Assembly (NCBI GenBank): GCA_029259185.1
Contig: JAPDJF010000014.1
Coordinates: 2,148 to 66,147 of the forward strand
Length of the DNA: 64,000 nt
Direction of reading: 5' to 3'
Origin: Hadesarchaea archaeon
GTDB lineage: Archaea > Hadarchaeota > Hadarchaeia > Hadarchaeales > WYZ-LMO6
A program made the translations under genes and the position numbers. Within the stretch, counting starts at the first letter, position 1. Each line of letters starts with the position of its first letter. Shown piece after piece: positions 4,957-38,683 of the stretch. The notes beneath the pieces were generated by a model. The model ran no database searches and was not told the origin of the DNA. It saw only the letters and a list, made by a program, of their open reading frames with translations.

Positions 4957-5229
4957 GTGGGATTCATACTCAAATGGGTTCGGGTCCCAACTCAGGGGCG
5001 TACCGTATTAATACCATTTTGGGCAGATGACCGACGGTGGGAAGCGATGCTAAACAAACAAATCGGAATACGACTGACCCCAAGGCACTACGCTCTCGTG
5101 AGGGAAGTCGCCAAGAGGCGCGGAGAGGACGTAAGCGTTTTCGTGCGACGGTCCCTCCTGCGGGAGCTGGCCGTGCTCTCCTACCTTTCAGAGGACGAGA
5201 AGAAAGCCCTGGGGGTTCTAACGAAATGA
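4957..5229 (+). CDS. ribbon-helix-helix (CopG/Arc-like) DNA-binding protein
   Basis: 90 aa. The C-terminal segment VSVFVRRSLLRELAVLSYLSEDEKKAL is typical RHH. The gene starts inside the tRNA-3'-end-like direct repeat at 4949-4965. Confidence 0.45.
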   Translation: MGFILKWVRVPTQGRTVLIPFWADDRRWEAMLNKQIGIRLTPRHYALVREVAKRRGEDVSVFVRRSLLRELAVLSYLSEDEKKALGVLTK

Positions 5230-5660
5230 AGATTTTGGCCCCCTGGGAGGAAGTCGTGGGGGGAGCTCGAGGGGTTGAAGGAGAGGGGGAGTTCTCCACG
5301 TGGTGCTTGACGAGAGGGCGGTGGAGGTTGGTACTTCGGTCCTCCGGGAACTCGCCGGCATGGAAGGGAAGCTCACGGGGATTTTGCGCACGGACTCCGG
5401 GTTCAGGGTGAGGGAAATCAGAGCCGGAGCGGGAACTGCTCGGGGAGAAAAGGGTGAGAGGGGATTAGAGATCGCGAGGACCCTAGAGCAGAAATGGAAA
5501 GGCGAGGACGAGATCGCAACCAGAGAACTTCTTCCGCCGTGCGTGTCGTGGAGGAGGGGTGAGATCCTGAGCAGGAGGCCCACGAAGCCTGACTTCAAAC
5601 CCGAGAAATTTGTGTGCATGTGTGTGCACGACCCCTGTGACGGAAGCCAGGGGAAAAGAG

Positions 5661-5838
5661 GCAGAATTCGGCTTCTTTTCTTCCAATTTATGCAATGTGA
5701 AAGAATTCTACATGTATTTTTCTTCCATACTTCACAAATTTGCTTTCCTATACCTAAATTTGTGAAGAATTCTTCCATAGAAGAATTCTTTTCTTCCATG
5801 GAAGAATTCTACACGAATTTTGCGAGTTTTCTTCCGAA
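5661..5838. promoter_or_regulatory. operator-like repeat array upstream of the 5860 RHH gene
   Basis: Four copies of a GAAGAATTCT palindromic core (GAATTC centre). Five copies of the direct repeat TTTTCTTCCA within ~180 bp. The array lies directly upstream of the ATG at 5860. Confidence 0.45.
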
Positions 5839-7289: not shown

Positions 7290-7472
7290 GTGGTGAACGT
7301 CGAACCGGTGATAGGGAGGGAGGTCGAGATAACCTATGCTGACGGGACAAAAAAGCGCAGGGGCAGGCTCCTGAGGGCCCCTTGCGGGTACTTCAAGCTC
7401 CTGAGCCACCACCGCACCTACCTCATCGAACAAAAATCCGTAACCGAGCTGAAGTTTTTAAAGCGCTCTTAG
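7290..7472 (+). CDS. hypothetical small protein
   Basis: 60-aa ORF (MVNVEPVIGREVEITYADGTKKRRGRLL...). No motif recognised. Confidence 0.25.
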   Translation: MVNVEPVIGREVEITYADGTKKRRGRLLRAPCGYFKLLSHHRTYLIEQKSVTELKFLKRS

Positions 7473-7890
7473 ACCCACTCTTCGTTTGCTCAGGCCGCCG
7501 GGGGGAAGGCGATAGAAGCAATATTCACATGAATAATGCTTCTATCCCCGACCTTCGCGTGGTCGTCCCGAGATCTGCGAGCGCGCGAAGGCTGGCCGAG
7601 GGGGAAGACGATGGAAGCAATACTCACATGAGTAATGCTTCCATGCCCCCTTGGTGGTGATAGGGTCTTGGGGGTGGGGGGAGTTCGGTCGGGAACTTGA
7701 GGAGCGCATCCGAGCCGGATTCATCCATATAAGTAGAAAAAGAAAACTGACCGACGAGGATCGAATTGCCATTCTAGACTCATTTTTAGCGGGAAGGGGG
7801 AAGGATTTTTGATCCAAATTTTGCACGCGTAATTTGGATAGGACAGTTCTACTCCCTTTTTAAAATGGTGATCAAAAACATTCTGAGCAC

Positions 7891-23789: not shown

Positions 23790-25178
23790 TCAACCATCGA
23801 TTTCATATTTTCCCCTTTCAATCGGGATCACAACCTCGGTTTCCAATTTCTTCAGGAATGGGACGAACATCTGCGGCTGCTCGGTGTGTATGGGGAAGAA
23901 CTTTTTGGGCCGGAGCCTCTCAACGATCTCGTAGATATCCTCCGGCCTGGCGTGGCCCGGGGTGTGTATCCTGTACAGTGGGATCCCGTAGACCGAAAGC
24001 CAGTTCTTCAGCCTCCTCTCGTCGAGCTCCATCTCCTCCTCGAATGGCTCCGTCTGGGACAGGATGTAAATGCTCCCGGGGGGCGGATCCAAGTACCTGA
24101 TCGGGGTCACTTCCCATGAATCCAGGAAAAGACAGCTTTCTGCCCTGCTCCTCAAGCCCGCCGAATCCACGAATATCTCGCTCCCGTAGCGCTGATCGAG
24201 CACCCTGGCCCTCTTGTTGGAGGGGTGGTAAGGCAGCTCCCTCAGGAAGACTCGGACTTCTTGACTTCTTGTCCCCACTTTGGGTACCCTTCCCAGTTTC
24301 GGATCGTCCTCCACGGACATCAGGGCTATCGCTATCGGGGGAGCCACGACCATCTCCTTGCCGAGCTCATTTGAAATCTCCCAGAACATCCTTATCCTGT
24401 CTATATCGTTCGTGGCGGTGCTGGCTATAACGAGACCGCCCCTGCATGCGGACTCGATCGCTCGAATCGTGTAGTCTTTGACTTCAGCTTCCGTGATGGG
24501 AACACCTCCCCCATCGATGTGCGTGCCCTCGCAGATCATCGCTTGAACCGGCTCGTCCAGCCTTTCCAGTCCGCGGATTAGAGACTCCGTGTAATCCGAA
24601 ACCACACCATGTCTCCTGAAGTCTCCCGTGTAAAGGACGATCCCACTGGACGTTTTCAGCACGAAGGCATACGAGCTAGGGACGCTGTGATCGACGTGGT
24701 GAGGCAAAACGTCGAGCCCTTCCCCGAAGTTCAAAACCTGGCCGGTTCTGAACGTTCGATATCGACCCTTGCTTTTCTCCTGGTATTCCTTTACCGCAAG
24801 GTTTTGCTTGGCCTTGGAGCTCATCGAGCCGTCGTACAGCCTGAATGCGGTTTCGCCCACAAAAACCGGAATGTCCTCTCTGATAAGGGCCGTTGCCCCG
24901 ATGTGGTCGGTGTGGGGATGGGAGACGAGTATCGCGTCGCACAATTTCTCTTTAGTTCTATCGTACATCTCTGGGATGTTTGGACTCAATCCTATGGACG
25001 TGTACTCTTCGATGGAATATCTCGGGGCATCCGTGGGGAAAGAATAGAACTCTTTGAATTTGCTCAGGCACAGCCCGAAGTCCAAAAATATCCTAGCCTT
25101 GCAATCCAAATCGTCCAGCAAAACCGCATTTCCACCTATCGTATTGACTCCACCATAGAAAGTCAGTCTCGCCGACAT
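23790..25178 (-). CDS. metallo-beta-lactamase / beta-CASP ribonuclease (archaeal RNase J-like)
   Basis: 462 aa. Motif VSHPHTDHIGA (HxHxDH). The beta-CASP acidic and His motifs occur downstream. The size matches aRNase J. Confidence 0.8.
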   Translation of the reverse strand: MSARLTFYGGVNTIGGNAVLLDDLDCKARIFLDFGLCLSKFKEFYSFPTDAPRYSIEEYTSIGLSPNIPEMYDRTKEKLCDAILVSHPHTDHIGATALIREDIPVFVGETAFRLYDGSMSSKAKQNLAVKEYQEKSKGRYRTFRTGQVLNFGEGLDVLPHHVDHSVPSSYAFVLKTSSGIVLYTGDFRRHGVVSDYTESLIRGLERLDEPVQAMICEGTHIDGGGVPITEAEVKDYTIRAIESACRGGLVIASTATNDIDRIRMFWEISNELGKEMVVAPPIAIALMSVEDDPKLGRVPKVGTRSQEVRVFLRELPYHPSNKRARVLDQRYGSEIFVDSAGLRSRAESCLFLDSWEVTPIRYLDPPPGSIYILSQTEPFEEEMELDERRLKNWLSVYGIPLYRIHTPGHARPEDIYEIVERLRPKKFFPIHTEQPQMFVPFLKKLETEVVIPIERGKYEIDG

Positions 25179-25445
25179 CGTCTCATTAGTTACTCAACAG
25201 CCCTCCTAATTTATCCTGCTGGCGGTGTCACCGTAGCGTTCAGCATTCAGAGCTATTCAGAGGCCACCACCGGATGTGAACTGACGAGGGCTGCTGGCAC
25301 GCGCTTAGCACGTTTAAATTGGGGGCTCAGGTGGCGCGTGGCTAAAGGGGGCAACTGGATCGGATTTTTCCACCCGAGACCGGCGGTGAGAGAGCGGGAG
25401 AACTCCGAAGCCGGTGATCCCCAATATCACTAGTAAAGAACGAAT

Positions 25446-26069
25446 TTATATCACTTCAACAACCCTTTCTTTGTAAAAATTGCACAGTCGCGAGAGCGGG
25501 CACTCCCCGCACCTCGGTTCGGGCCCGCACACGAGGGCAGCGAAGTCGAGCAGGGCTTCATTGTATTCGGGTCCACTACCTCTAGGAACTAAGTCACTTG
25601 CGAGCTTCAAGAGTGCTTCGTCTCTAGAAGGTGGTCGCCTGCCTTGTAACCCGAAGACCCTCCTGAGGACACGTGCCACATTCACATCAACTATTGATAC
25701 ATCCCTCCGAAATCCAAAGCAGAGGATCGCGTTCGCCGTGTAACTACCTACGCCAGGCAACTTCGTGAGTTCGTCTTGCCGGTCGGGCACATGTCCGCCA
25801 TATTCTTTAACCATTCTTGTCGCAAGTTCGATGAGCCACTGCGCCCTTTTTTGGAGACCCAATGGTGTGAGGAGCTTCCGCAACTCTTTCACGTTTGCGG
25901 ATGCCAAGTGCGTGACGGTGGGGTACTCTTTCAAGAATGATGGATAAAACTCCGCTACCCGCTCGGCGGGTGTACGCTGAAGCAAAATCTCTGCGAGCAG
26001 GACTCGATACGGATCGGTGGACACCCTCCAAGGGAAAGTTCTCCCGTGCTTTCGCCGCCAATCTAACAA
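25446..26069 (-). CDS. nth: endonuclease III / HhH-GPD base-excision glycosylase with 4Fe-4S loop
   Basis: 207 aa. HhH segment LTKLPGVGSYTANAIL. Catalytic-Asp region IVDVNVARVLRRV. C-terminal CGPEPRCGECPLSRLC cluster. Confidence 0.85.
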   Translation of the reverse strand: MLDWRRKHGRTFPWRVSTDPYRVLLAEILLQRTPAERVAEFYPSFLKEYPTVTHLASANVKELRKLLTPLGLQKRAQWLIELATRMVKEYGGHVPDRQDELTKLPGVGSYTANAILCFGFRRDVSIVDVNVARVLRRVFGLQGRRPPSRDEALLKLASDLVPRGSGPEYNEALLDFAALVCGPEPRCGECPLSRLCNFYKERVVEVI

Positions 26070-26091
26070 CGACCGTACGAAGCTCGTCGAT

Positions 26092-28101
26092 TTATTCGGC
26101 AGTTAGACCCCTTCGCTTTTCCATCTCTTCTTCAGCCACGCGAACCGCAAGACGAAATAAGTAGCCGCGGAAGTCTTCTCGGTACAGTCTTACCGTGTCC
26201 TTGACGAACTCGTGGGCGCGGCAGAGAGCCCAAGGAAGTATCGGCCTTGCGCCCGTTTTAAGGGTTTCTGTGTATATGTCGAGAGTTCGAGGGTCCGCTA
26301 GAGCCGTCAGAACCCTCCCCACATACTCCCTTTCTTTCTCGACCAAGTCTGAACTCTCCAGAAGTCTATAGGGAAGGAGTATCTCGTACCGCGGCAGTGC
26401 CGTGCTCTCCGTGGGTAAGTCCTCTAGGGTTAGCCGACCACCCTTTACACCACAGTAGAAGCTCAAAACGGCGGCCCTTGCACAGAGGAGAGCGTACAGC
26501 TCGGGATCTGGTTCTTCTATCAGCTCCTTTTTTTCCTCAATGCGTTTTTCGATAAAGCTAATCCACTGGTCTTCTTTAGTTACCCCTTCCTCCTCCGCTT
26601 GGCGCCTTAACTCGGGCTCCATCATGTAAGAGAAACGGCGCACGAAGCGACATGTACAAACGATCTCGCCCGACGAAAGGTCGGGCGACAAACCCTCAAA
26701 GAGTCTCAAAACAGTCCCCTGATCAGATAGGCGGAAGTGGAATATCAAATCGGGGTCCATATCGGGCCAGATAGGCGACCTCCCTTCCATTCCCGATCCG
26801 AACCGGAGGTACCAAAAAACTAGGGGGGCAATAAATTCAACCCCAGCTCTTTTTACCGTCCCGCAGTAAAGAACGCGGTCGGAGAAATTAACGTCCTTGA
26901 CGAGTTCGCTGAAGGCTCTGAGACTGTTTCTAACCATTTGGCCGTGTATTCTAGGTTGGGTGTAGTCCGAAAAGAGATGCTCTAGCGGGAAAATCCTTCC
27001 GTCTCTGAACACCACATCGGGCCGGCGCCGGCCCCCCCCGTTCAGGGCCTCGTGGTCTTTAAGGTACTGACGGACATTTAGGGCCGCACTCAAAGTTCGC
27101 TCCCATAGCCTTGGATCGGCCAGTTGAAGGTACGCGCTAGGTGGGACTAGGATCCCCTGATCGATGGCTTCTTCAGATGTGTATGTCACCCATGTGCTCG
27201 GCGACGGTTTTGCGTCGACATCCTCTATTTCACTTGTATACAAGTTGTAGTATATGGCAACGGCTGCCAGAATCGCCATCGGGTGGCGCTCAAATTTTTT
27301 AGGCAGGATATCCCCCAACGAGAAAATTTGGAGAGAAGCGTCCGTACCCACTTCAGTGTACGGTTCCTCCAGTTGACCGACTTTAAACCTCTCTAAAAAA
27401 CTTCTTCCGAGCACTACTTGTTTTAAGTGCTTATCGACGATGTCCGGGTCAAAGTGGGCCTCGTCGCTGAGGGTTCGGGGTTTAAACTTTAACTGGAGAC
27501 CTTTTCGTGGCACCCCAAGTTGGCGCGCGAAAACCGAGTCGGCGACATTGTCGATATCCCATACTTTCCTCCCCATCTCTTCCACCCTTTTCTTATCCCC
27601 TGCTTTCTTCGCATTCTTAAGACGATCCACGCAAGCCTTGTGTTCTTCGTAGAGCCATTTAGCAAACTGCAGAAGAAGTTTACGCGGATCCTCAGCCTCG
27701 AGCCGCCGAGCCGCTTCCCGGAAGTATTTTTTGAGCTCGCGGGAGTCGATGTCAACGAGTTCTTTCCTAACGATATCCAATATCAGCCGATTCCCCTTCT
27801 CGAACTCCTCCCTCTCCACCTCCACTCTGAATAGGTCTTTAGGCTCCCCTAGCCAACGGGTCAGCGGGATGGCCGCAAGATGGTAGAGTATCTCAGGGGG
27901 GTTCGACCAATCGTCTTTAATTACGAGACCCCTGCTCACCATGCGTTCGATCGCTTTCCTCACATTCTGGTATGTCGTGCCCAGCTTCGCCGCGATCTGT
28001 GAAATCGTCCCCCTTCCGCCCAAGTCCTCAAGTGCTCGAGATATTCGCGCCTCCAGACCCTTGCCTGCTTGAACCCGTCTCTGTCCAACCATCACAACCA
28101 C
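26092..28101 (-). CDS. large wHTH-containing protein of unknown function, translationally coupled to the HerA-like ATPase
   Basis: 669 aa. N-terminal winged helix (GTISQIAAKLGTTYQNVRKAIERMVSRGLV). The central segment VVFRDGRIFPLEHL resembles the Asp motif of RNase-H-fold nucleases (NurA/PIWI RDG-like), but this is not established. A 10-nt overlap with the upstream ATPase gene indicates translational coupling. Confidence 0.55.
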   Translation of the reverse strand: MVVMVGQRRVQAGKGLEARISRALEDLGGRGTISQIAAKLGTTYQNVRKAIERMVSRGLVIKDDWSNPPEILYHLAAIPLTRWLGEPKDLFRVEVEREEFEKGNRLILDIVRKELVDIDSRELKKYFREAARRLEAEDPRKLLLQFAKWLYEEHKACVDRLKNAKKAGDKKRVEEMGRKVWDIDNVADSVFARQLGVPRKGLQLKFKPRTLSDEAHFDPDIVDKHLKQVVLGRSFLERFKVGQLEEPYTEVGTDASLQIFSLGDILPKKFERHPMAILAAVAIYYNLYTSEIEDVDAKPSPSTWVTYTSEEAIDQGILVPPSAYLQLADPRLWERTLSAALNVRQYLKDHEALNGGGRRRPDVVFRDGRIFPLEHLFSDYTQPRIHGQMVRNSLRAFSELVKDVNFSDRVLYCGTVKRAGVEFIAPLVFWYLRFGSGMEGRSPIWPDMDPDLIFHFRLSDQGTVLRLFEGLSPDLSSGEIVCTCRFVRRFSYMMEPELRRQAEEEGVTKEDQWISFIEKRIEEKKELIEEPDPELYALLCARAAVLSFYCGVKGGRLTLEDLPTESTALPRYEILLPYRLLESSDLVEKEREYVGRVLTALADPRTLDIYTETLKTGARPILPWALCRAHEFVKDTVRLYREDFRGYLFRLAVRVAEEEMEKRRGLTAE

Positions 28102-29666
28102 TTTTCCAGTCCCTCGCTCTCCCCCCTCGGCGGGCCTGCGATTTCCTCCTTCGGTTCGCCAGCCTCGCGTGGGGTTGGTTGAGTTCTAGGTTTCCACTTT
28201 TGGACCTCTGTAACAATATCTGGTGTGGCTCCGCCATGCTTCGTTTCGCGCCCCCTCACTCTGATGGGGACGGCGTGGCGCACCGTCTCTCTGCTTCCGG
28301 TAAGCAAACATGTGCCCTGCTCGAATTTGGGTAGCCGTCCTACCAAGTCACGGGGCGCGTCTGCGAAGACTCCTCTGAGAGAATCGAGCTGGTCTGGCTC
28401 CAAGGCGAAGATGAATCGGGTGTTAGTCACGCGAATCACGCGCTGGTCGATGTCCGTCGGAGAGGGGGTGACCAAAATTAAGCAGACACCGTAGTGGCGA
28501 CCGAACCTGATAGTCTCGCGCAGGACGGTCGAAGAGGGCGTGTCTCCGCTCGAGGGCAAGAACATGTGGGCCTCGTCTATCGAGAGCACCAGTGGGGGTA
28601 TGCGGTTGCGCATCCTCAGGCTTAAAAGTTCTCTAGCGATGGCTGCCGCCACGGCGTGTAATTCGCTGTGACCGAGACCCCGGCAATCTATGTTAACGAG
28701 GGCCTTGGGCCTCAAGAGGGAGGGCCAATCGACTCCTTTTCCGATAACGTGAACGTGCCTTAACGCGCTAGCGCGGTCGGAGGCGATGCTGATGGTGTCT
28801 CGTCGAGCGTTGAACTCGGCACCCACTTTTGGGATTTCGTTCACAAGATCGTCGACATCGAAGTCTCCTCGCTTCTTCAGATTTAAGAAGGCTCGTCGTA
28901 CGAGTTGTTCCTGCAGTTCGGTGAGCCAAGGAATCATGCCTATCACTTCGGGCTCGGCGAGGGACGAAAGGCGAATGGTGAGAGTCTTCCCTGGAGTCAG
29001 GTTAATACCGTTTAGCTCTTCCGTCGCCTCTACGGCTTCGCCGTGAATGTCGAGGTTAACTTGGGGTACTCCCAGCGAGACTAGCTCCTCAGCCAAAACG
29101 CCGCGGAGCCAAGATTTCCCGGTACCCGTGGTTCCCACGATGAGGATGTGCCGAGGAAGCACCTCCTTCGGGTTTAGGGATATAGGCAAGTTAGCGCCCC
29201 CCACCAACGTCCCTACACTGAGACCCTTACTAGGACTGACTAAACCAAGAACGTGTGCCACCGTATCTGGTGTAGCCCGATACACGGGCGATCCCGCCGG
29301 AACTAACGTCTGTGGCTCTCTGAGGTTCCAAGAATCTCCTTGCCGAACTAGTTCCTCGAGCAAATCTAGCATAACGAGTCGGAATCTTCGTGGGAGATCC
29401 TCTCGCACGCTCGGACTTTCGAGCCTGAGTAGCTCCCTCATGTGGGAGAGTTCGGCTGCCTCGTATGGGTTAACCTCGCGTCCCCAGACAACCCTGCCAA
29501 CGCTAAGTGAGACACCCTCCTCCCCGACGGCGACGAGCAACTCTCCAGGTCGGGCGAGCTTCCCCGGTCGGAGGGCAACAAGTAAGGATGAAAAAGAGGG
29601 GGTACTCTCATCTGCGACTACCGTTCCCACCCGCTCCGTTAAGTGGGCGAATGACATTCCTCTCAC
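28092..29666 (-). CDS. HerA/FtsK-like (DUF87-type) P-loop ATPase
   Basis: 524 aa. Walker A ILIVGTTGTGKSWL and Walker B LVLSIDEAHMFL. The N-terminal beta-barrel-like region matches the HerA/DUF87 layout. Confidence 0.75.
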   Translation of the reverse strand: MRGMSFAHLTERVGTVVADESTPSFSSLLVALRPGKLARPGELLVAVGEEGVSLSVGRVVWGREVNPYEAAELSHMRELLRLESPSVREDLPRRFRLVMLDLLEELVRQGDSWNLREPQTLVPAGSPVYRATPDTVAHVLGLVSPSKGLSVGTLVGGANLPISLNPKEVLPRHILIVGTTGTGKSWLRGVLAEELVSLGVPQVNLDIHGEAVEATEELNGINLTPGKTLTIRLSSLAEPEVIGMIPWLTELQEQLVRRAFLNLKKRGDFDVDDLVNEIPKVGAEFNARRDTISIASDRASALRHVHVIGKGVDWPSLLRPKALVNIDCRGLGHSELHAVAAAIARELLSLRMRNRIPPLVLSIDEAHMFLPSSGDTPSSTVLRETIRFGRHYGVCLILVTPSPTDIDQRVIRVTNTRFIFALEPDQLDSLRGVFADAPRDLVGRLPKFEQGTCLLTGSRETVRHAVPIRVRGRETKHGGATPDIVTEVQKWKPRTQPTPREAGEPKEEIAGPPRGESEGLEKWL

Positions 29667-29689: not shown

Positions 29690-30757
29690 TTAAACCTTAC
29701 CTTTTAACAGTTTCATGATACTTTTCGCCAAGGCCTGGGCCAGCGCCACCGGCATGGCGTTCCCTATCTGTCTCGCTACGGACTGAGCCGTGCCTTCGAA
29801 GACAAACGAGTCGGGGAAGGTTTGGAGCCGCGCGGCCTCTCTGGGTGTGATGGCCCTGTCTTGCTCGGGGTGGATGAATCGCCCGCAACTGGGAGCGTTG
29901 AAGCGAGACGTAATCGTGGGAGACGGAGAATTCCAAGACATCCGGCCGTACACGTTCTCCGCGCCCTTATCGAGCCTACGGTGGCACCGGAGCCACAAGT
30001 AACGAGGTAAGCTCCTCCTGCTCCCCCCGTCCCTAGGGACACGACGGACGGTCTCTAAGACACGGGCGGAGTGGTTCGTCGCCACATGGTTGGGTATTGT
30101 GGGGTGAACTTCTCCCGCGTGCAGGGGGGGCAGGTCTCCTATAGCGTCTCTCACGGTTCGCCACTTGGGAAGGGCGAGTTTCCCAGCGCATGTCGGATTC
30201 GCGTGAGTTGGTGGGGGGAGCCAGACCGACTTGACGGTTCTGTCGACCGAGAGCACTATCAGTCTCTTGCGGAACTGGGGGACGCCGTAGTCGGCGGCCT
30301 CTAAGCACCCCCAAGTGGACCGGTAACCCAGTCGTGCCAGTTTTCCCATGTAAAGTGCAAGGTACTGTCTTGTCTTCCGGTGGATCATCCCCGACACGTT
30401 CTCGAAGAGGACGGCCTTGGGCCTGATCTCGCCGACGAGTCGCAAGAGAGTGCGAACCAGACCGTTCCTCGGATCTCGCGCGTACTTAGGTCGAGTCCTC
30501 CGCAGGCTACTGAACCCCTGACAAGGCGGACACCCCACGACGATGTCGATCTCGCCGCGTCGCGCTCCAGCCGCGGTGAGGATGTCGTCGCCACCGATCC
30601 TCCTCGCGTCGGAGCAAATTGGATCGACACCTAGGTTCCGTTTAAACGTGGCGCAGGCGGAGGGATCATTGTCCACGGCCGCCACCACACGGAAGCCCGC
30701 GCGCTCGAGGCCGAGGGACGCGCCGCCGCAACCGCTGAATATGTCGACCGCCAACAT
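29690..30757 (-). CDS. dcm: DNA (cytosine-5)-methyltransferase
   Basis: Motif I VDIFSGCGGASLG. Motif IV GCPPCQGFS. Motif VI AVLFENV. Motif VIII QFRKRLIVL. Motif X GNAMPVALAQAL. The start was moved to the internal ATG (MLAVDIFSG...) because the track begins at a TTG. Confidence 0.9.
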   Translation of the reverse strand: MLAVDIFSGCGGASLGLERAGFRVVAAVDNDPSACATFKRNLGVDPICSDARRIGGDDILTAAGARRGEIDIVVGCPPCQGFSSLRRTRPKYARDPRNGLVRTLLRLVGEIRPKAVLFENVSGMIHRKTRQYLALYMGKLARLGYRSTWGCLEAADYGVPQFRKRLIVLSVDRTVKSVWLPPPTHANPTCAGKLALPKWRTVRDAIGDLPPLHAGEVHPTIPNHVATNHSARVLETVRRVPRDGGSRRSLPRYLWLRCHRRLDKGAENVYGRMSWNSPSPTITSRFNAPSCGRFIHPEQDRAITPREAARLQTFPDSFVFEGTAQSVARQIGNAMPVALAQALAKSIMKLLKGKV

Positions 30758-30760
30758 CTC

Positions 30761-30792
30761 TGACGTCAATTATGACGTCAAAAGTATAAATA
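30761..30792. promoter_or_regulatory. twin TGACGTCA palindromes plus shared TATA element between divergent genes
   Basis: TGACGTCA-ATTA-TGACGTCA lies at 30761-30780. It is followed by TATAAATA at 30785-30792, about 25 bp upstream of the 30807 ATG. On the other strand TTTATA lies about 27 bp upstream of the dcm ATG. Confidence 0.5.
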
Positions 30793-30806
30793 GCTTTGGT
30801 TCCAAA

Positions 30807-30968
30807 ATGGATGCGATGCCGCGATTGGAAAAGCCGAGAGCAATCCAGATTACGATTCGAGATAGGAGGACGGGGAAGAGCAAATCACGGACGGTGTACG
30901 ACACAACACTCGACGAGGTGTACAAGACTATAGAGCGTGTCTTCGGTGGGAAGGGGAGAGTTCGCTAG
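30807..30968 (+). CDS. 53-aa small protein in the divergent control region
   Basis: MDAMPRLEKPRAIQITIRDRRTGKSKSRTVYDTTLDEVYKTIERVFGGKGRVR. Good TATA spacing and non-repetitive composition. Confidence 0.4.
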   Translation: MDAMPRLEKPRAIQITIRDRRTGKSKSRTVYDTTLDEVYKTIERVFGGKGRVR

Positions 30969-31376
30969 TTTCCCTGCTGGATTTCTTAATGGGGTTCGAT
31001 GATCCCGCGGGAGGGTCTGGAAACGAACCCGAAAGGACGGCAGTACTTGAACTACTCGTACTCGGTGAGGACACCTGAGGGGGAACTGAAATAGGTGGTG
31101 TAACGACACTATAGTGGATGGTGTCCGAAAGCAACGCCCAAATCATCTAGCCGCTCTGAAGAAATTCTGCGAATTCTGTGGAAAAATCCAAGTCAAACTT
31201 CCTCCCATTTACACTTCTTCCCCAATTCAACCCCTAAAGTCATTAAGGCTCATAGGGAGAAAACGGGATTCTCTTCCTTTCCCGCTGAAATTTAAATCAG
31301 TAAAAAAATCAAAAATACTTTTCAACCCCCTCGCAAATTTAATTGACATGGTTTTGGCGGGTGTTGGAGGTCGGGC

Positions 31377-34300
31377 ATGAGATTCGATACCGCTTTTTGG
31401 GTGGATCGGTTCAGGGATCTCGGATATCCCTTGAGACATTTGGGTTTGGATGTCGGGTACCTCAGGGGGCAGGGGATCCTGCCTCGCGAACTCGAGGTGT
31501 CCTCGGCCAAGCTCCTCTACAGGGACGACTACGTCGAGGTGGTCGTCCTGGAGCTCGAGCGTCTCGCCCCCAGGGGCCTGTGCAGTCGCGTCGCGAGGGG
31601 GTGGAAGGGCAGGAGGCTCCGCAGGCCGCTCCTGGTCTTCACGGACGGCGTCGACAGCTACGCGGTGATCGTCCCAGGTCCCGGCGTCGGGGGCGAGGTC
31701 AAGGCCCTTAGGCTCCACGGCGAGCTCTACAGGACGGACAGGGAGGTTCTGGAGTCGCTGAGGTTCCCGGGAGACCCGGAGAAGCTGAGGGAGGCCTACG
31801 ACGCCGTCTTCTTCCCCTACGAGAAGGTCAGGGACGAGTTCTTCCAGGGGTACAGGGCACTGTTCGAGCGGATAATCGACTCCGTCAAGAAGCTGCTCGG
31901 GCAGGACGCCCAGTCGTACGCGCAGCGCTTCCTCGGCAGGCTGATGTTCCTGTACTTCCTCCAGAGGAAGGGTTGGCTGAAGGGCGACAGGAAGTTCATC
32001 GATAAGATCGGCGACTTCCGGGAGCTCAATAGGTTGTTCTACGAGAGCCTGAATAAGGAGGACGGCGAGGAGGGGCTGCCGTTTTTGAACGGTTCGCTCT
32101 TCGAGAGGGAGCCGTACATGACCGACAAGATGGAGGCCGGGCTCTTTCCGGTGATGGACCCCATATTCAAGGAGGCTCGGGAGTTCTTCAACCGGTACAA
32201 CTTCACGGTCGACGAGACGTCTCCCATGGAGGTCGAGGTGAGCATAGACCCCCTCCTGCTGGGGACCGTGCTGGAGAACATGCTGCCCGAGCACGAGAGG
32301 GGTGAGCGGGGCACCTTCTACACCCCGGTGGACGAGATAGGATTCATGTGCAGGAGGGCCATCTCGGTTTACCTTGGACTGGGGGACAGGGTGGAAGCCA
32401 AATCGGACAGAGGCACGGAATTCGTGGACGGCCTGTCGGAGTTCGTCGAGCGGCTGAAGCGAGAAAAGAGTGAAGAAAAAGTGAGGGAGTTCAAGGAGAA
32501 ACTGCTCTCACTGAGAGTTCTCGATCCAGCGGTTGGTTCGGGTGGCTTCCTCGTGGTCATGATGCAAACGCTTGTTCAGCTGATTCATGAGGCCGAGGGG
32601 GCGGTCGGGTGGAAGACCGACCCGGAAGAACTCAAAAGGAGAATACTTCCGAACCTCTTCGGGTTTGACATCGAACCTGAGGCCGTCGAGATAGCGAGGC
32701 TCAGGCTGTGGCTTTCCCTCATCATCGACCAGAAGTATCCTCTCCCCCTCCCCAACCTCGACATGAACATCATGGAGATCCACGACGCACTATCAAGGAA
32801 GTGGGGGTACACCACCAAGCTCGACGAGTTAGAGCATCAGGCAAGTCTCAGGGACAAGTTGGAATGGCTCAGGGAAAAGTACCTCACCGAACACGATCCG
32901 AGGAAGAGACAACACCTCCGAAAAGAGATCAATGAGTTGCAGGAGGTGCTGATGGGGAAGATTGATCCGAAAGGAATTCAAATCGAGTTTTACCTCCCAG
33001 AAAGAGCTGCAGATATCGTAGTTATGAACCCGCCCTACGTGAGGCAGGAGAAAGTACCTCTAAAGAAGAAACAGCAGTACATCAACGACTACAGGCTCGA
33101 TAGAACATCCGACTTGTATGCTTACTTTATGGTGAGATCGCTTGAACTCCTTAAGGAGAATGGGGTAGCGGCGATCATTTCGTCCGACAAGTGGCTTGAG
33201 ACGAACTATGGGAGGACGCTCCAAAAGAGGCTCAAGCCCCACTTGGTTGCGGTCTACGGACAACGTCACAGAAGTTTTACGGCGGATGTGAACACCGTAA
33301 TAACCGTCCTAACGAAGAAGCGACGCGACGCAAAAGAGCCTGTGCAGTTCGTCTACTTGGAGTCGTACACAGAGGGTGTTGTCAGGAACTACAAGGCCAT
33401 CAAGAGAGGAGAGCTGACGCCAGGCAAGTGGTACTACTTGAGAGCTCCAAAGATATTCGAAGAGGTTCTCCTGCCAAAGCTAACCCATAGACTAGAGGAG
33501 TTCGCCGAGATAAAGCGGGGTTTCACTACTGGTGCCAACGAGTTCTTCTACCTCAAGGACGTGAGTCACCTCTACGAGGCCGACAGACTGGCGAACCCCA
33601 AGAAGTTCCGGGAGTGGGGGGTAACCGCTAAGAACGAAGGAGCGCTGAGGAGGCAGGGGCTCATCTACGTGGAAAATGAGGGAGGGGAGAGGTTCCTCTT
33701 GGAGAGGGATGCTGTGAGACCGATTCTTAGATCTCCGAGACAGATCCGGAGCTACGGGGTGGAGGAACCCGAGACCCTCTGTTTCTGGGTTCGAGGAAGA
33801 CCAGGGCCCTTCGCCTCTCGCTACATCGAATGGGGGAGGAGGAAGGGATTCTATAAAAGACCAACGTGCAGGGCCAGGGATCCTTGGTACTCCCTCCACG
33901 AGTTCCAGGAGGCCAAGATTTTCCCACCAATGTCTTGGGGAGATGTCATGTACATTTCCTACAGCCCGGAGCCCTACGTTTGTGACGCTCGTTTGTACGG
34001 GCTTTATCCCAAGAAGCCGGGACTTGAGAACACGTTGGCCTGCTACCTGAACTCCACGCTTTTCTTTCTCACTGTTGAACTCTACTGCAGAAGACTGGGT
34101 GGGGGGGCAACTGATATTAAGGTTGAGGACTACGAGCAGATGCCAGTTCCTGACCTAGCAAAAACTAGGATTGATTTTGATTTCTCCAAGTTTGCTAGAG
34201 AACCGTTGAAGTACATGAAGGAAGTGGAGCAGGCGGACAGAAAGGAACTGGACAGGGCTGTGCTTAGGGCGATGGGTTTCAAGGAGAAAGAGCTGGAGGG

Positions 34301-34403
34301 CCTCGTGGACGAGCTTCACCGCGCCTTCGTGGAGGTCGTGGAGGACAGACTGATAAAAGCCGGCAGGCCACTCAAGCAGGGAGAGGAGGCTGCGGAGGAA
34401 TGA
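31377..34403 (+). CDS. large N6-adenine DNA methyltransferase (type IIG/III Mod / PglX-like, gamma-class)
   Basis: 1008 aa. Motif I VLDPAVGSGGFL at about aa 385. Motif IV VVMNPPYV at about aa 555. Long N-terminal (~380 aa) and C-terminal (~450 aa) regions of unknown function. Confidence 0.85.
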   Translation: MRFDTAFWVDRFRDLGYPLRHLGLDVGYLRGQGILPRELEVSSAKLLYRDDYVEVVVLELERLAPRGLCSRVARGWKGRRLRRPLLVFTDGVDSYAVIVPGPGVGGEVKALRLHGELYRTDREVLESLRFPGDPEKLREAYDAVFFPYEKVRDEFFQGYRALFERIIDSVKKLLGQDAQSYAQRFLGRLMFLYFLQRKGWLKGDRKFIDKIGDFRELNRLFYESLNKEDGEEGLPFLNGSLFEREPYMTDKMEAGLFPVMDPIFKEAREFFNRYNFTVDETSPMEVEVSIDPLLLGTVLENMLPEHERGERGTFYTPVDEIGFMCRRAISVYLGLGDRVEAKSDRGTEFVDGLSEFVERLKREKSEEKVREFKEKLLSLRVLDPAVGSGGFLVVMMQTLVQLIHEAEGAVGWKTDPEELKRRILPNLFGFDIEPEAVEIARLRLWLSLIIDQKYPLPLPNLDMNIMEIHDALSRKWGYTTKLDELEHQASLRDKLEWLREKYLTEHDPRKRQHLRKEINELQEVLMGKIDPKGIQIEFYLPERAADIVVMNPPYVRQEKVPLKKKQQYINDYRLDRTSDLYAYFMVRSLELLKENGVAAIISSDKWLETNYGRTLQKRLKPHLVAVYGQRHRSFTADVNTVITVLTKKRRDAKEPVQFVYLESYTEGVVRNYKAIKRGELTPGKWYYLRAPKIFEEVLLPKLTHRLEEFAEIKRGFTTGANEFFYLKDVSHLYEADRLANPKKFREWGVTAKNEGALRRQGLIYVENEGGERFLLERDAVRPILRSPRQIRSYGVEEPETLCFWVRGRPGPFASRYIEWGRRKGFYKRPTCRARDPWYSLHEFQEAKIFPPMSWGDVMYISYSPEPYVCDARLYGLYPKKPGLENTLACYLNSTLFFLTVELYCRRLGGGATDIKVEDYEQMPVPDLAKTRIDFDFSKFAREPLKYMKEVEQADRKELDRAVLRAMGFKEKELEGLVDELHRAFVEVVEDRLIKAGRPLKQGEEAAEE

Positions 34404-37400
34404 CTAGGATCGTGGACAACAAGGGGGAGACCCTCGCGTCCGTCCTGAACAGGGAGTTCTCCGAGGTGAGCGAGGTCGCGATCGCCTCCGCCTACTTCAA
34501 CATCCGGGGGTACGGTGACATAGAGAGAGGGCTCGGGGACAAGCCGATGCGCCTCCTCCTGGGACGCGAGCCAACCGAGAGCGTGAAGTGGGAGGAGGAG
34601 ATACTCCGGGAGCTCGAGGAGAGCGAGGACGACCTGGACTACTTCCTCCTCCTGCAGCGGGCGATAGAGTACTTCCGGAGCGACAGGCGCCAGGTCAGGA
34701 TCATGGGGGGACCCTTCTTCCACGGCAAGGCCTTCATCGGGGTGCATCCGAACACGTTCTCCGTGAGGCGCGGCGTGGGGGTGGTCGGCTCCAGCAACTT
34801 CACCCACGGGGGCCTCGTGGCCAACCGGGAACTCAACATGGTCAACACCGACCGCGAAGTCGTGCGGGAGCTCGCGGGGTGGTTCGAGGAGCAGTGGCTG
34901 AACTCCCGCGACTACAAGGAGGAGTTCCTCTCCATGCTCAGCAACTACGCAATCACGAGGAGTCCGCTGGAGGTCGTGGCGAAGGCCCTCTACGAGACCT
35001 ACAAGGAGAGCCTGGGCGAGAGGAGGGCGGAGATCTTCAAAGGCATGTACCCCCACCAGCAGCTCTCGTACATAAACGCGGTGGAGAAGCTCGAGAGGTA
35101 CGGGGGCGTGCTGATCGCCGACTCGACGGGACTCGGCAAGACCGCGACCGCACTGAACCTGGCCCACACCGCGATGAGGGACGGAAAGAGGGTACTGCTC
35201 GTGGCCCCCAAGAACGTCCTCGAGACCACGTGGAGGGACGAGATGAGGAGAACCCTCGGGACCAGGGAGTTTCTGGAGACCCTCTCCTCCGAGATGCTCT
35301 CCCAGAACCCGGCGTGCGTGGAGGAGTACGCGGGCGAGAACGGCGTCCAGCTCGTGATCGTCGACGAGGCCCACTACTTCAGGAGGCAGTCCACCAACAG
35401 GTACCAGGCCCTCAGGGAGCTGATAACCAAGAACGGTGCATCGGTGGTGCTCATAACGGCCACCCCCGTGAACACGAGCCTCATGGACCTCTACTCCCTC
35501 CTCGCCCTCTACCTCCCCGAAGACTGCGTGCTCGACCTCTGCGGGATGACCCTCAGGGGCTACTTCACCTCCAACCAGGCTAGGTGGCTCAAGGGTGAGC
35601 CCGTGAACATGGACGAGGTGCTGAGGAGGTTCATCGTGAGGCACTCGAGGGAGCTCGCGAGGGCCATGGACAAGGAGGGGAGGATAAGGTTTCCGGAGAG
35701 GGAGCTGGACAAGATCGAGTACCCGGTGGGCGTCGACCTGTGGGCGGTTCACGAGGTGCTGTCCCGGATGAACTTCGCGTTCTACGACCTCTCCGTGGAG
35801 AGGTTCTCCGGCGACCTCAGGATGCCCGACGGAACCCCCCTCTCGAGAGCCGCGAGTGAGGAGCAGGTGGAGAACCTGAAGGATCTCGTCAAGACGATAG
35901 TGGTCATAGGGCTGTTCAAGCGACTCGAGAGCAGCCTGACCGCCTTCAGGGAGTCCCTCCTGCGGACGCGGAGGTACGTGCGAGTCGCGCGCGAGTACGC
36001 CGTGAAGATGCAGTACTTCGTGCCCCCGAGGGTGAAGGGCGACGTGCTGTCCATTCTCGGGGAGGACGATGAGCTGGAGGAGCTGCCCGACCCCGGGGAC
36101 CTCCTCTCCAAGCTGAGGGGGGAGGATGCCTTGGAGAAGTGCAAGCTGGACCGGCGCGATGCCGAGGAGTTCGCGTCGAGGTGCCTGGAGGACGAACGGG
36201 ACATCGACGAGCTGCTGAAGATGCTCCCGAGCGAGGACGAGAAGTACCGCGCGCTTGAGGAGAAGGTCGGGGAGATGCTGGAGAGGGTGAGCGCGGGCGA
36301 ACCGGGCGTGAAGAACGGCATCATAATATTCACCCAGTACGCCGACACCGCGCGCTACCTGTACGAAATGCTCAGGGCGAGGTTCGGCCGCGCCATGCTG
36401 GTGACGGGGGGAGGGGGGTACGGCGGCGACGGTAGGTCGTGCACCGAGGCCGAGGCTGTCAAGGATTTCCAGAGGCACGGTGGGATACTGATCAGCACGG
36501 ATGTCCTGAGCGCGGGGCAGAACCTTCAGAACGCCCAGTTCGTCGTGAACTACGACTTCCCGTGGAACCCCGTGATCCTGATCCAAAGAGCCGGGAGGGT
36601 CGACAGGATAGGTTCGCCCTACGACAGGATATACCTGGTGAACGTGCTCCCCAAGAGGGGCGACCCGGGGGATCGCCAGAGTCTGGAGTACTTCTTGGGG
36701 CTCATGGAGAGGCTCTACAGGAGGCTCGAGATGATCAGGGAGACCGTGGGGATAGACGCCTCGACCTTGGGTGAGGAGGCCGCCCCCAAGGACTTCAGCC
36801 TACAGGCGAGGATCGCGCGCAACGACCGAGGGGTCCTCAGCCTCCTGGAGAAGAAGATCGAGCAGTTCACGAGGGACCCGCTGGACGTGCTGGCCAAGAT
36901 ACTGAGGGAGAAGGGTCTCGAGTGGATCGAGCGGATCCCGACCGGAATAGGGGCCATAAAGCACGGTAAGTTCAACGGCCTGTTCGTGCTCTTCACCGAC
37001 GGGAAGAATCACTACTGGAGGCTCCACGATCACGACGCCAACTCCACGATCACCTCGATTACCGAGATAACCGACATCCTCATGGAGGGGGAGGTGGCGA
37101 ACAGCGGCGAGAAAATCCCCTACGAGTCCCTGATAGGGAAGCTGAAGGGGGCCAAGGATGCGCTGAGGCGGGAGCTGGAGAGGGCGAGCCTGAGGGAGGT
37201 CACGAGGGGGGAGGCCCCGGAGAAAGTGACGAGAACCATCGCGGAGATCTACGATGCCCTGGCCAAAGCGGGCCCCGAGGGGGAGAAGCTCGCCGCGATG
37301 TTCAGGGGGCTGGCCAACCGGAGTACGGTCGTGGAGGGGCTGAAGAGGGCGAAGAGCGAGGGACGGTTGCTCGAGAAGGCGCGGGAGATACTCCCCCCGC

Positions 37401-37486
37401 TCGCGTCCGCGCCACCCCGAGGAGAGAGCGACGAGTCCATCCCGAAGCTGCGCAGGATGTGCTGGTGCCTCATAACGAAATCGTGA
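34400..37486 (+). CDS. PLD-family nuclease domain fused to SNF2/DEAD-like superfamily-2 helicase
   Basis: 1028 aa. The N-terminal PLD region has an HGKAFIG-like HxK motif and GSSNFTHGGL. Helicase motif I ADSTGLGKT, motif II LVIVDEAHYF, motif III LITATPV and motif VI QRAGRVDRIGS. The start overlaps the methyltransferase stop (ATGA). Confidence 0.85.
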   Translation: MTRIVDNKGETLASVLNREFSEVSEVAIASAYFNIRGYGDIERGLGDKPMRLLLGREPTESVKWEEEILRELEESEDDLDYFLLLQRAIEYFRSDRRQVRIMGGPFFHGKAFIGVHPNTFSVRRGVGVVGSSNFTHGGLVANRELNMVNTDREVVRELAGWFEEQWLNSRDYKEEFLSMLSNYAITRSPLEVVAKALYETYKESLGERRAEIFKGMYPHQQLSYINAVEKLERYGGVLIADSTGLGKTATALNLAHTAMRDGKRVLLVAPKNVLETTWRDEMRRTLGTREFLETLSSEMLSQNPACVEEYAGENGVQLVIVDEAHYFRRQSTNRYQALRELITKNGASVVLITATPVNTSLMDLYSLLALYLPEDCVLDLCGMTLRGYFTSNQARWLKGEPVNMDEVLRRFIVRHSRELARAMDKEGRIRFPERELDKIEYPVGVDLWAVHEVLSRMNFAFYDLSVERFSGDLRMPDGTPLSRAASEEQVENLKDLVKTIVVIGLFKRLESSLTAFRESLLRTRRYVRVAREYAVKMQYFVPPRVKGDVLSILGEDDELEELPDPGDLLSKLRGEDALEKCKLDRRDAEEFASRCLEDERDIDELLKMLPSEDEKYRALEEKVGEMLERVSAGEPGVKNGIIIFTQYADTARYLYEMLRARFGRAMLVTGGGGYGGDGRSCTEAEAVKDFQRHGGILISTDVLSAGQNLQNAQFVVNYDFPWNPVILIQRAGRVDRIGSPYDRIYLVNVLPKRGDPGDRQSLEYFLGLMERLYRRLEMIRETVGIDASTLGEEAAPKDFSLQARIARNDRGVLSLLEKKIEQFTRDPLDVLAKILREKGLEWIERIPTGIGAIKHGKFNGLFVLFTDGKNHYWRLHDHDANSTITSITEITDILMEGEVANSGEKIPYESLIGKLKGAKDALRRELERASLREVTRGEAPEKVTRTIAEIYDALAKAGPEGEKLAAMFRGLANRSTVVEGLKRAKSEGRLLEKAREILPPLASAPPRGESDESIPKLRRMCWCLITKS

Positions 37487-38683
37487 GTGATTTTTCTGTT
37501 AGCTGAGAGGGGATTCTTGCCAACTCTGGAGGATGTAAAGAACGAGGAATTGGGAAAGCTGGCGAAGAGGCTGAAGGGGGGCTCGGAGAAGGAGACCCTC
37601 GCCAACATCTTGGAGTGGCAGGAGAGGAATATCATGTGGGCCGCTGATAGGTGGTACACGTACCGTCTGCTCCAGACAATCGTTGCTTTCACAATACTAC
37701 TACTTATAGTTCCTTTCTATTGGATGAATTTGATGAACCCCGTACTGTGCTGGGGAGGTATTTTAGTGGGAATTGTGACTGTGGTGTCTTTAAACCCGGC
37801 TTATCCACTACCTGCACTCACCCCCCTCACGGTCTACGCTATCCTCTGGCTTTCTCTTAACTCTGGGCCGATTATAACCTCGGTCTTAATCCTGTTAGCC
37901 CTCCTCTTGGGAGGCATGATAGTGGTGGTGATCTACCTGTTAATGAAGTATAAGGACTTTTACAGGGAATTCGGGTTTGGGTTTCTTGCCGACCTCTTCC
38001 GCCCCAGCCTGCCCGTGGAGAAGATCCTGAGGTACCGGTTGGGGGTGTGCAGGGACTACGCGAAGCTCACGGCGGCCCTGCTCTTCAACTTGTATCCGGG
38101 TTCTAAGGTCTGTTTCCTTTCTTTGGGAGGGCACGTTGCCGCGGCCACCAGAATTAAGGGTAAGTACTATGTCCTCGATCAGCGGTTGCCAGTTTCAACG
38201 ATAAACAGGTGGTTGATGAGATGGGATAAAAGGAAAGTAAAAGTTATCGTTTCTAAATTGAAGTGGGGTCGAAGAGGAGAAGTAGTCGACGTTGAAAATT
38301 GGAAGAAAAAATATAATGCGAAACGGGAAAAGTCGTCCTCGCTGAACACTAAGGTACTAACGGAAAAAGTTGTAAAGGCACTTAGGACAAAACAGACCCC
38401 GCGGGAATGCTATCCGGACGTTGAGATGCGTCTGAAAAGCTTCGCCCTCTACTACGAGGACGACGGCGTGGTGGAGTACTCGATGGTAAGGGCGATTAAG
38501 AACAGGGTCGAGGGCGAGCTGTGTGGTGACGTTGGCAGGATCTCCAGGCTTGAGGTCTGCAAGGATGGGCGAGACAATAAGGACTTGATCGCGAAGGTTT
38601 GGGTAGGAGACGACTCTATTTCCATAAGCCGGTTTGGTGATGTGACAAAACAAAAGTTTACAAAATGTAGAAATGTTAATTGA
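37487..38683 (+). CDS. polytopic membrane protein with transglutaminase-like cysteine protease domain
   Basis: 398 aa with about 5 TM helices. The segments LGVCRDYAKLTAALLF and GGHVAAATRIKGKYYVLDQ are spaced like a TGase Cys-His-Asp triad. Starts 1 nt after the helicase stop. Confidence 0.55.
   Translation: MIFLLAERGFLPTLEDVKNEELGKLAKRLKGGSEKETLANILEWQERNIMWAADRWYTYRLLQTIVAFTILLLIVPFYWMNLMNPVLCWGGILVGIVTVVSLNPAYPLPALTPLTVYAILWLSLNSGPIITSVLILLALLLGGMIVVVIYLLMKYKDFYREFGFGFLADLFRPSLPVEKILRYRLGVCRDYAKLTAALLFNLYPGSKVCFLSLGGHVAAATRIKGKYYVLDQRLPVSTINRWLMRWDKRKVKVIVSKLKWGRRGEVVDVENWKKKYNAKREKSSSLNTKVLTEKVVKALRTKQTPRECYPDVEMRLKSFALYYEDDGVVEYSMVRAIKNRVEGELCGDVGRISRLEVCKDGRDNKDLIAKVWVGDDSISISRFGDVTKQKFTKCRNVN

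Follow-up and report, generated by a model that had tools for sequence, protein, structure and literature searches.

In the 64,000-nucleotide stretch of Hadesarchaea archaeon DNA analysed here (contig JAPDJF010000014.1, hereafter the window), a minus-strand operon headed by the C5 cytosine DNA methyltransferase gene dcm faces a small plus-strand open reading frame (ORF), and the region between them carries two identical 8-bp palindromes, TGACGTCA, and a single TATA box. On balance, we read positions 30761-30968 as one copy of a conserved cassette, in which a leaderless small gene, its TATA box and palindromic hexamers at a 12-bp period would together make up a switch of the kind known from phage Cro and from the controller (C) proteins of restriction-modification (R-M) systems. 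It probably represents a new type of controller for archaeal mobile defence genes, one without a helix-turn-helix. An earlier note on this DNA had proposed that the palindromes form a tandem operator for a dimeric, C-protein-like regulator, and that the 53-amino-acid (aa) product of the ORF is a candidate for it. The first proposal gains from the conserved protein family, the phased hexamers, the R-M neighbours and the C- or Cro-like gene position described below, although the protein does not belong to the helix-turn-helix (HTH) family of C proteins. The second now has comparative support as well, but with a start corrected to 50 aa, a predicted beta-beta-alpha fold and no HTH match.

The plus-strand ORF that had been described as running from ATG 30807 is present, and with its stop codon at 30966-30968 it encodes 53 aa. 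Judged by its conservation, it is a real gene of an uncharacterised family. A phmmer search against 1.84 billion representative proteins returned about 20 small proteins (43-89 aa, 42-59% identity), and a profile search found 75 related proteins (43-69 aa), which share the consensus M-x-x-(E)KPK-x-I-x-IT-IRDRK-x-NKSKS-ITVY-x-TTLEEV-x-x-KI. Six residues (K6, P7, D16, S22, T26 and Y28) are near-invariant in the family and all are kept in the window copy, which matches the family profile at E = 3.7e-20. In an hmmsearch of the six-frame translation of the window, the family matches the small ORF only (2.2e-24), making it the sole copy there. The view that the ORF is an orphan, which came from a word-indexed search that matched the ORF itself only, was overturned by the full HMMER search. 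The homologues open with M-x-x-(E)KP, and since they begin 3-4 residues before the KP motif, in alignment with Met4, translation is more likely to start at ATG 30816 (50 aa) than at ATG 30807, which would add MDA.

AlphaFold2, run with a 77-sequence alignment, models the protein at a pLDDT of 85 with strands at residues 9-15 and 22-28 and a helix at 32-43, a beta-beta-alpha arrangement in which the beta-hairpin and the helix are both confident and the conserved hairpin RDRKxNKSKS is basic. This differs from the ribbon-helix-helix (beta-alpha-alpha) and AbrB (swapped-hairpin barrel) folds, and no Pfam match to either was found. The small protein matched no Pfam, PHROG, NCBIfam or PADLOC family, none of 20 members matched an HTH family at E<=0.1, and a sequence search of the PDB gave no match. 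PLSDB plasmids and INPHARED phages gave no match, and scans with the family alignment returned 6 metagenome loci and 2 viral loci only. We found no report of a KP-RDR-KSKS-TVY small-protein family in the literature.

The evidence that ties this gene to the palindromes comes from its relatives. In ten archaeal homologue loci (L131, L134, L137, L140, L144, L145, L147, L148, L152 and L155), hexamers of the G(T/G)TAAC type recur at a 12-bp period and flank the TATA box on both sides. Seven of the ten place them at -67/-55/-43 and at -22/-10/+2 from the ATG, or within 1 nt of these positions, around an 8-bp TATA box at -30 to -23; the last downstream hexamer, at +2, lies within ATGTTAAC or ATGGTAAC. 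When eight loci are aligned, the hexamers and the TATA box are invariant and the spacers between them vary, and across about 78 kb of homologue loci, hexamer pairs spaced by 12 bp occur at the small-gene promoter only. The window follows the same layout, with a leaderless-type promoter, a TATA box at -31 to -24 and palindromic hexamers at a 12-bp period. Its GACGTC cores stand at -54 and -42, within 1 nt of homologue hexamers 2 and 3 (-55/-43). By this comparison, the twin palindromes are the positional counterpart of a putative family-wide operator, conserved in position and different in sequence.

The hexamers differ between loci, and so do the proteins. In the eight GTTAAC loci, the position aligned with Q11 of the window protein is aliphatic, Thr or Ala, and Ile follows the KSKS motif, while the GGTAAC/GTTACC loci (L152 and L155) have Met at the first position and Phe or Leu at the second. 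The prophage locus L154 combines Tyr and Lys with TTGCAA/TTGCGA, and the window combines Gln (Q11) and Arg (R25, after KSKS) with GACGTC. For the homologue P0146, which has Met and Phe, GGTAAC was predicted before the locus was read, and this was borne out in L157, where GGTAAC stands at -22 and +2 and TTTACC-N6-GGTAAC lies upstream. Even codon 2 changes with the hexamer, being TTA within ATGTTAAC (MLT) in GTTAAC loci and GTA within ATGGTAAC (MVT) in GGTAAC loci. As far as the aligned sequences tell, hexamer identity tracks the small-protein sequence. The small ORF is the sole gene common to all hexamer loci and is therefore the best candidate for the hexamer-binding protein.

The genes beside the family also bear on its role. 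The earlier note had suggested looking for the ORF next to related methyltransferase operons, and the family does adjoin such genes: DNA methyltransferase or R-M genes stand next to the small gene in eight loci. In L140 the small ORF overlaps an NmeDI_C endonuclease gene by 1 nt (TAATG), followed by an Eco57I-like methyltransferase; in L155 a fusion of an N6_N4 methyltransferase and Mrr begins 2 nt downstream; and in L145 a Dcm (C5 methyltransferase) follows after 90 bp, then Vsr and a HATPase_c_3 protein. The small gene heads the operon in these three loci, which is the position of a C-protein gene, and methyltransferase neighbours are also found in L131, L146, L152 and L150. In seven loci (L131, L134, L137, L140, L145, L155 and L157) a transposase gene is divergent at 65-78 bp from the ATG of the small ORF. 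Two types of transposase occupy this position, a SWIM+DDE protein of about 380-410 aa and a DDE_Tnp_1 protein of about 525 aa, a regularity that may point to control of transposase expression by the cassette too. Two further loci are prophage-like, with the small gene divergent from a CI-like repressor and heading the early operon, that is, in the Cro position. One of them, L139, has an HTH_31 protein on the left and a CII/HTH_3-like protein on the right; the other, L154, has an integrase and Peptidase_S24 on the left and ERF and SSB on the right. What all these settings have in common is that the small gene stands at a divergent promoter of a mobile R-M, transposon or phage module. Separately, the segments L131:3285-8275 and L132:3285-8275 are one identical block of about 5 kb with different flanking genes, which makes the block a mobile unit. 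It contains a 75-aa ORF, an N6_N4 methyltransferase-Mrr fusion, a SWIM/IS240 transposase, the small ORF, and ORFs of 162, 458 and 66 aa.

Within the window, the twin palindromes stand alone. They lie where the earlier note had put them, at 30761-30780 with ATTA between the two copies and hence a 12-bp period, 4-23 bp from the dcm ATG and 27-46 bp from ATG 30807. The octamer TGACGTCA occurs twice in the whole window, both times here (0.68 expected), and a search for further twin sites, as had been proposed, found no other match to the 20-mer TGACGTCA-ATTA-TGACGTCA or to TGACGTCA-N4-TGACGTCA in the 64 kb at up to 2 mismatches. Nor does the window hold a second copy of the cassette region. In first-order Markov shuffles, identical 8-bp palindrome pairs at most 20 bp apart are expected 0.093 times per window, and 27 of 300 shuffles contained at least one. 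Beyond the window, a viral scan for TGACGTCA-N4-TGACGTCA gave 47 unrelated loci, at about chance level, many of them phage GTGACGTCAC arrays, and we found no report of TGACGTCA operators in archaea in the literature.

Other repeat arrays came to light. In phage contigs from IMG/VR (L094 at 7457-7759, L084, L087, L090, L110, L121 and L129), units of the form (G)TGACGTCA(C) recur every 12 bp, and the arrays are often longer than a pair; none of these is related to the window locus. The five twin sites of L094 are spaced 67-78 bp apart in the manner of iterons. In the window itself, at 5700-5815, four GAAGAATTCTTC-type palindromes (AGAATTCT at 5702, 5766, 5782 and 5803) surround the start of the minus-strand ORF 5218-5799. 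This array is operator-like, and three of its copies fall in the class of twin 8-bp palindromes that shuffles rarely produce.

Promoter geometry and proposed mechanism

The TATA box, TATAAATA, sits between the two genes, and with its flanks it forms a quasi-palindrome (CAAAAG-TATAAATA-GCTTTG, 30779-30798) in which 7 of 10 pairs match around the centre of the box. The flanks are A-rich and resemble B recognition elements (BRE), one in each orientation. For many genes of the window a TATA-like element lies 24-37 nt ahead of the ATG, as is usual where mRNAs have no leader or a short one. The distance of 25-27 bp from TATA box to each ATG that had been given earlier is wrong, the true values being 15-22 bp for ATG 30807 and 28-35 bp for the dcm ATG. 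Taking ATG 30816, the fourth codon, as the start of the small ORF puts the box at -31 to -24, and the geometry then fits. The start codons of dcm and the small ORF are then 59 bp apart (30757/30816), compared with 50 bp if ATG 30807 is used (30757/30807). From the TATA-to-ATG distance in the homologues, minus-strand transcription is predicted to start at about 30761 and plus-strand transcription at about 30815-30816, roughly 55 bp apart.

That one near-palindromic TATA box can serve both directions, as the earlier note had it, agrees with an established archaeal mechanism, even though the distances quoted for ATG 30807 were wrong. In Pyrococcus furiosus, differential RNA sequencing in vivo and in vitro transcription showed that one TATA box within a BRE-TATA-BRE motif directs transcription both ways; the start sites of such pairs lie 49-50 bp apart, and the products are mostly non-functional antisense RNA (PMC6640164). 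An imperfect palindrome, TTGGTTCCAA, is found at 30797-30806 of the window, between the TATA box and the small ORF start, where the homologues have their downstream operator hexamers; it might be a site for a different factor.

We propose the following mechanism. The small, basic protein of about 50 aa would bind the phased palindromes as a dimer or oligomer. The inverted A-rich BRE-like flanks would let the one TATA box nucleate a pre-initiation complex in either direction, with starts at about 30761, giving dcm a 4-nt leader before its ATG, and at about 30815-30816, giving a leaderless message that begins at Met4. Palindrome 1 covers +1 to -7 and palindrome 2 covers -12 to -19 of the predicted dcm promoter; measured from ATG 30816, they stand at -55 to -48 and at -43 to -36. 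The putative operator would thus cover -19 to +1 of the dcm promoter and lie upstream of the BRE of the small-gene promoter, and for this reason its occupancy should silence the dcm-HerA operon, while the small gene would still be transcribed or would even gain. The analysis shows the sequence elements, the family membership, the conserved layout of the promoters and the recurring methyltransferase, transposase and CI-like neighbours; that the small protein binds DNA, where transcription starts and whether it is repressed or favoured are predictions. The cassette might also control the plus-strand module beyond the small gene, although that module starts 408 bp downstream and has TATA-like and Shine-Dalgarno-like elements of its own.

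Weighing the readings

Several observations weigh against the switch reading. The three downstream hexamers (-22/-10/+2) are absent from the window, and between 30793 and 30830 no GACGTC-like site is found, only the imperfect TTGGTTCCAA, so that the window cassette is partial and could be a relic. The predicted start sites are 55 bp apart, as against about 49-50 bp for the Pyrococcus shared-TATA pairs. GACGTC occurs as the hexamer in one locus only, which leaves its link with Q11/R25 a single observation. Foldseek searches of the small protein against PDB and BFVD, together with the PDB sequence search, gave nothing significant. The repeats of the bacterial prophages are less regular, with 11/24-bp spacings in L154 and 40 bp in L139, and many homologue loci, being possible copies of related mobile elements, are not fully independent of one another.

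The palindromes could also be the operator of some other regulator, either the 669-aa protein of the dcm operon in autoregulation or a host transcription factor, with a different role for the small protein. An operator at -19 to +1 of the dcm promoter would suit any repressor, and residues 23-62 of the 669-aa protein give weak MarR_2/HTH_29 matches (4.6e-4, below the gathering score). We think this unlikely, however, since the small ORF is the only constant gene beside the phased hexamer arrays of the homologue loci, none of the homologue loci examined encodes a relative of the 669-aa protein, and the hexamer type covaries with the sequence of the small protein.

The frequent transposase neighbours suggest another role, that of an Xis-like or transposition accessory factor polymerising on the hexamers; the window copy would then be a stranded relic whose two sites have no important regulation. 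The fixed 65-78 bp between small gene and divergent transposase in seven homologue loci speaks for it, as do the mobility of the L131/L132 block of about 5 kb with its different flanks and the window copy itself, which has lost the downstream hexamers and has no transposase. Yet the transposases at this position come from two unrelated families, a point in favour of a generic regulator acting at promoters; the copies in prophages have the place of Cro and do not adjoin the integrase; and, in the manner of operators, the hexamers lie on either side of the TATA box and the start site. In the window, moreover, the protein keeps all invariant residues. We regard this role as improbable.

A neutral 12-bp tandem duplication (TGACGTCAA twice) without function, next to an ORF that is expressed or not regardless of it, is in our view a very unlikely account of the twin palindrome. 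The two copies are indeed direct repeats with a 12-bp period, and at least one twin 8-bp palindrome appears somewhere in the window in 9% of shuffles. These repeats, however, lie within 1 nt of the family-wide operator hexamer positions and occupy the very stretch that separates the TATA box from the divergent gene's start.

Least probable of all is that the GACGTC/ACGT palindromes are recognition sites of Dcm or of a partner restriction activity, by which the promoter would sense its own methylation, as happens in R-M systems governed by methylation of their promoter. GACGTC, which includes a CpG, is one of the classic 6-bp sites of type II enzymes, and the C5 methyltransferase gene starts 4 bp from the palindromes; against this, GACGTC, ACGT and TGACGTCA are about as frequent in the window as expected (observed/expected 0.96, 0.92 and 1.14), no such sites lie upstream in 80 homologous dcm loci, and the same GTTAAC hexamers accompany unrelated methyltransferases (N6_N4-Mrr, Eco57I-like, and C5 with Vsr), so that hexamer identity is independent of the R-M enzyme.

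The reading of 30761-30968 as a switch cassette leads to a broader proposal, which we offer tentatively. The family of about 45-50 aa would be a beta-beta-alpha DNA-binding family and a portable switch cassette that replaces HTH C and Cro proteins in archaeal R-M and transposon modules and in some phages, its specificity re-tuned by lineage (GTTAAC, GGTAAC, GACGTC, TTGCAA); in the window it would decide the direction in which the shared TATA box fires. To our knowledge, the regulation of archaeal R-M systems and defence islands is almost unexplored, and all characterised controller proteins that we know of are bacterial HTH proteins. If the proposal is true, archaeal R-M and mobile modules would gain their first candidate family of controllers, with a new small DNA-binding fold, and it would explain why some 75 tiny, rarely annotated ORFs are conserved beside methyltransferases, transposases and phage repressors. 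It would also supply natural pairs of regulator and operator with differing hexamer specificities, for studies of DNA recognition by beta-sheets and as orthogonal archaeal genetic parts, and a case in nature on which to test how an operator sets the direction of transcription where an archaeal TATA box is shared.

Genomic setting

The DNA of the window, with about 52% GC and with genes for Orc1/Cdc6, WtpA, FeoB and three tRNAs, comes from an archaeal chromosome. The island at 24-38 kb reaches 54-61% GC, and its flanks at 18-24 kb and 38-40 kb have 43-49% GC, a contrast consistent with horizontal acquisition of the defence island. The features of the locus are collected in the table.

Table. 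Features of the dcm/small-gene locus; positions are those of the window, and a dot marks features without a strand.
Feature	Position	Strand	Evidence or remark
MBL-fold hydrolase	23790-25178	-	dcm operon
Operon remainder, after dcm	23790-29666	-	Pfam/PADLOC matches
HhH-GPD glycosylase	25446-26069	-	dcm operon; PADLOC 'Type II nicking endonuclease' 1.9e-42
669-aa protein, weak N-terminal winged-helix match	26092-28101	-	dcm operon
HerA/DUF87 ATPase	28092-29666	-	dcm operon; PADLOC mad8 4.5e-18
dcm, C5 cytosine DNA methyltransferase	29690-30757	-	Pfam DNA_methylase 2.7e-64; PADLOC MTase_II 6.4e-97
Palindrome 1 (putative operator), TGACGTCA	30761-30768	.	core GACGTC 30762-30767
Palindrome 2 (putative operator), TGACGTCA	30773-30780	.	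core GACGTC 30774-30779
A-rich BRE-like hexamer CAAAAG (inferred)	30779-30784	+	directly 5' of TATA box, for plus-strand transcription
TATA box, putatively shared, TATAAATA	30785-30792	.	-31 to -24 from ATG 30816; -28 to -35 from dcm ATG
BRE-like hexamer, GCTTTG on plus strand/CAAAGC on minus strand (inferred)	30793-30798	-	for dcm transcription
Small-protein gene, 50 aa from Met4 (MPRLEKPRAIQITIRDRRTGKSKSRTVYDTTLDEVYKTIERVFGGKGRVR) plus stop	30816-30968	+	family search, alignments, AlphaFold2
Spacer, apparently non-coding, 408 bp	30969-31376	.	between small ORF and plus-strand module
TATA-like AAATTTAATT	31335-31344	+	ahead of ATG 31377
Shine-Dalgarno-like GGAGGT	31366-31371	+	ahead of ATG 31377
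Plus-strand module, three genes	31377-38683	+	Pfam/PADLOC matches
Eco57I/MmeI-like N6 methyltransferase	31377-34403	+	PADLOC mad2 1.3e-13
PLD-SNF2 helicase-nuclease	34400-37486	+	plus-strand module
DUF553 transglutaminase-like protein	37487-38683	+	plus-strand module

The minus-strand operon begins with dcm, whose ATG has its A at 30757 (MLAVDIFSGCGG). The HhH-GPD glycosylase further along is probably a Mig-like T:G repair partner of the 5-methylcytosine methyltransferase; in L145, Dcm is paired with Vsr in place of an HhH-GPD glycosylase. The dcm gene itself tells little about its promoter. Three other contigs carry this Dcm, and as they are 100% identical to the window they hold no comparative information; the next relative is 58% identical. 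Among 80 genome loci with Dcm homologues (<=56% identity), TGACGTCA is not conserved upstream; L006 alone has a match, at -121, which is no more than chance would give.

On the plus strand, the small gene is followed by a 408-bp spacer of lower GC, in which we found no convincing ORF, terminator-like hairpin or remnant of an endonuclease or methyltransferase gene; Rfam gave no match in 30500-31600. Since the dcm operon holds a mad8 match and the plus-strand module a mad2 match, a single MADS-like methylation-associated system, and not two systems, might account for both divergent modules.

Comparison with known systems

The closest functional parallel is with the C proteins of R-M systems (C.PvuII, C.AhdI, C.Esp1396I and C.Kpn2I). 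There too, a small gene heads the R-M genes or is divergent from them, the operator is a tandem of palindromes in the regulator's own promoter region, and the expected outcome is autoregulation together with timing or balance of methyltransferase and nuclease. C genes often overlap the endonuclease gene, as the L140 homologue does. In contrast, C proteins are Xre-type HTH proteins of about 80 aa that work with bacterial sigma-70 RNA polymerase, whereas the window protein has about 50 aa, is predicted to be beta-beta-alpha and belongs to an archaeal TATA/BRE setting. Its gene is also 408 bp from the downstream methyltransferase, while the L140 homologue overlaps its endonuclease gene by 1 nt and the L155 homologue ends 2 nt before its methyltransferase-Mrr fusion. 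The C-box consensus is GACT...AGTC, to which the window operator TGACGTCA-ATTA-TGACGTCA is unrelated. Membership of the canonical C proteins was accordingly rejected, given the absence of an HTH match among 20 members, the AlphaFold2 beta-beta-alpha model and an operator that is not a C-box.

Phage Cro at CI/Cro regions offers the second parallel. The homologues of L139 and L154 each lead the rightward genes, with a CI-like repressor divergent from them and CII-like or early genes next, and they share with Cro the small size, the repeated palindromes between divergent starts and the predicted repression of the leftward gene. The Cro position holds for these two homologues and not for the window itself. 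Cro of lambda and P22 and their relatives are HTH or winged-helix proteins, and no similarity in sequence or fold to the small protein was detected.

At the level of the promoter, the archaeal repressors MDR1, LrpA and Phr bind between TATA box and start site and block recruitment of RNA polymerase. The putative operator of the window is placed alike, downstream of the TATA box and overlapping the predicted start site of the promoter to be repressed, here that of dcm. Those repressors are of DtxR, Lrp or winged-helix type, and the small-protein family is a different, uncharacterised one. The TATA box itself compares with the BRE-TATA-BRE promoters of Pyrococcus furiosus (PMC6640164), being quasi-symmetric, flanked by inverted A-rich BRE-like elements and midway between predicted divergent starts. 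The Pyrococcus promoters mostly yield antisense RNA from starts 49-50 bp apart, whereas the window has genes both ways, predicted starts about 55 bp apart and an operator on one side only. The cassette lies outside both R-M controllers and phage Cro by the criterion of the HTH fold, and it resembles both in function.

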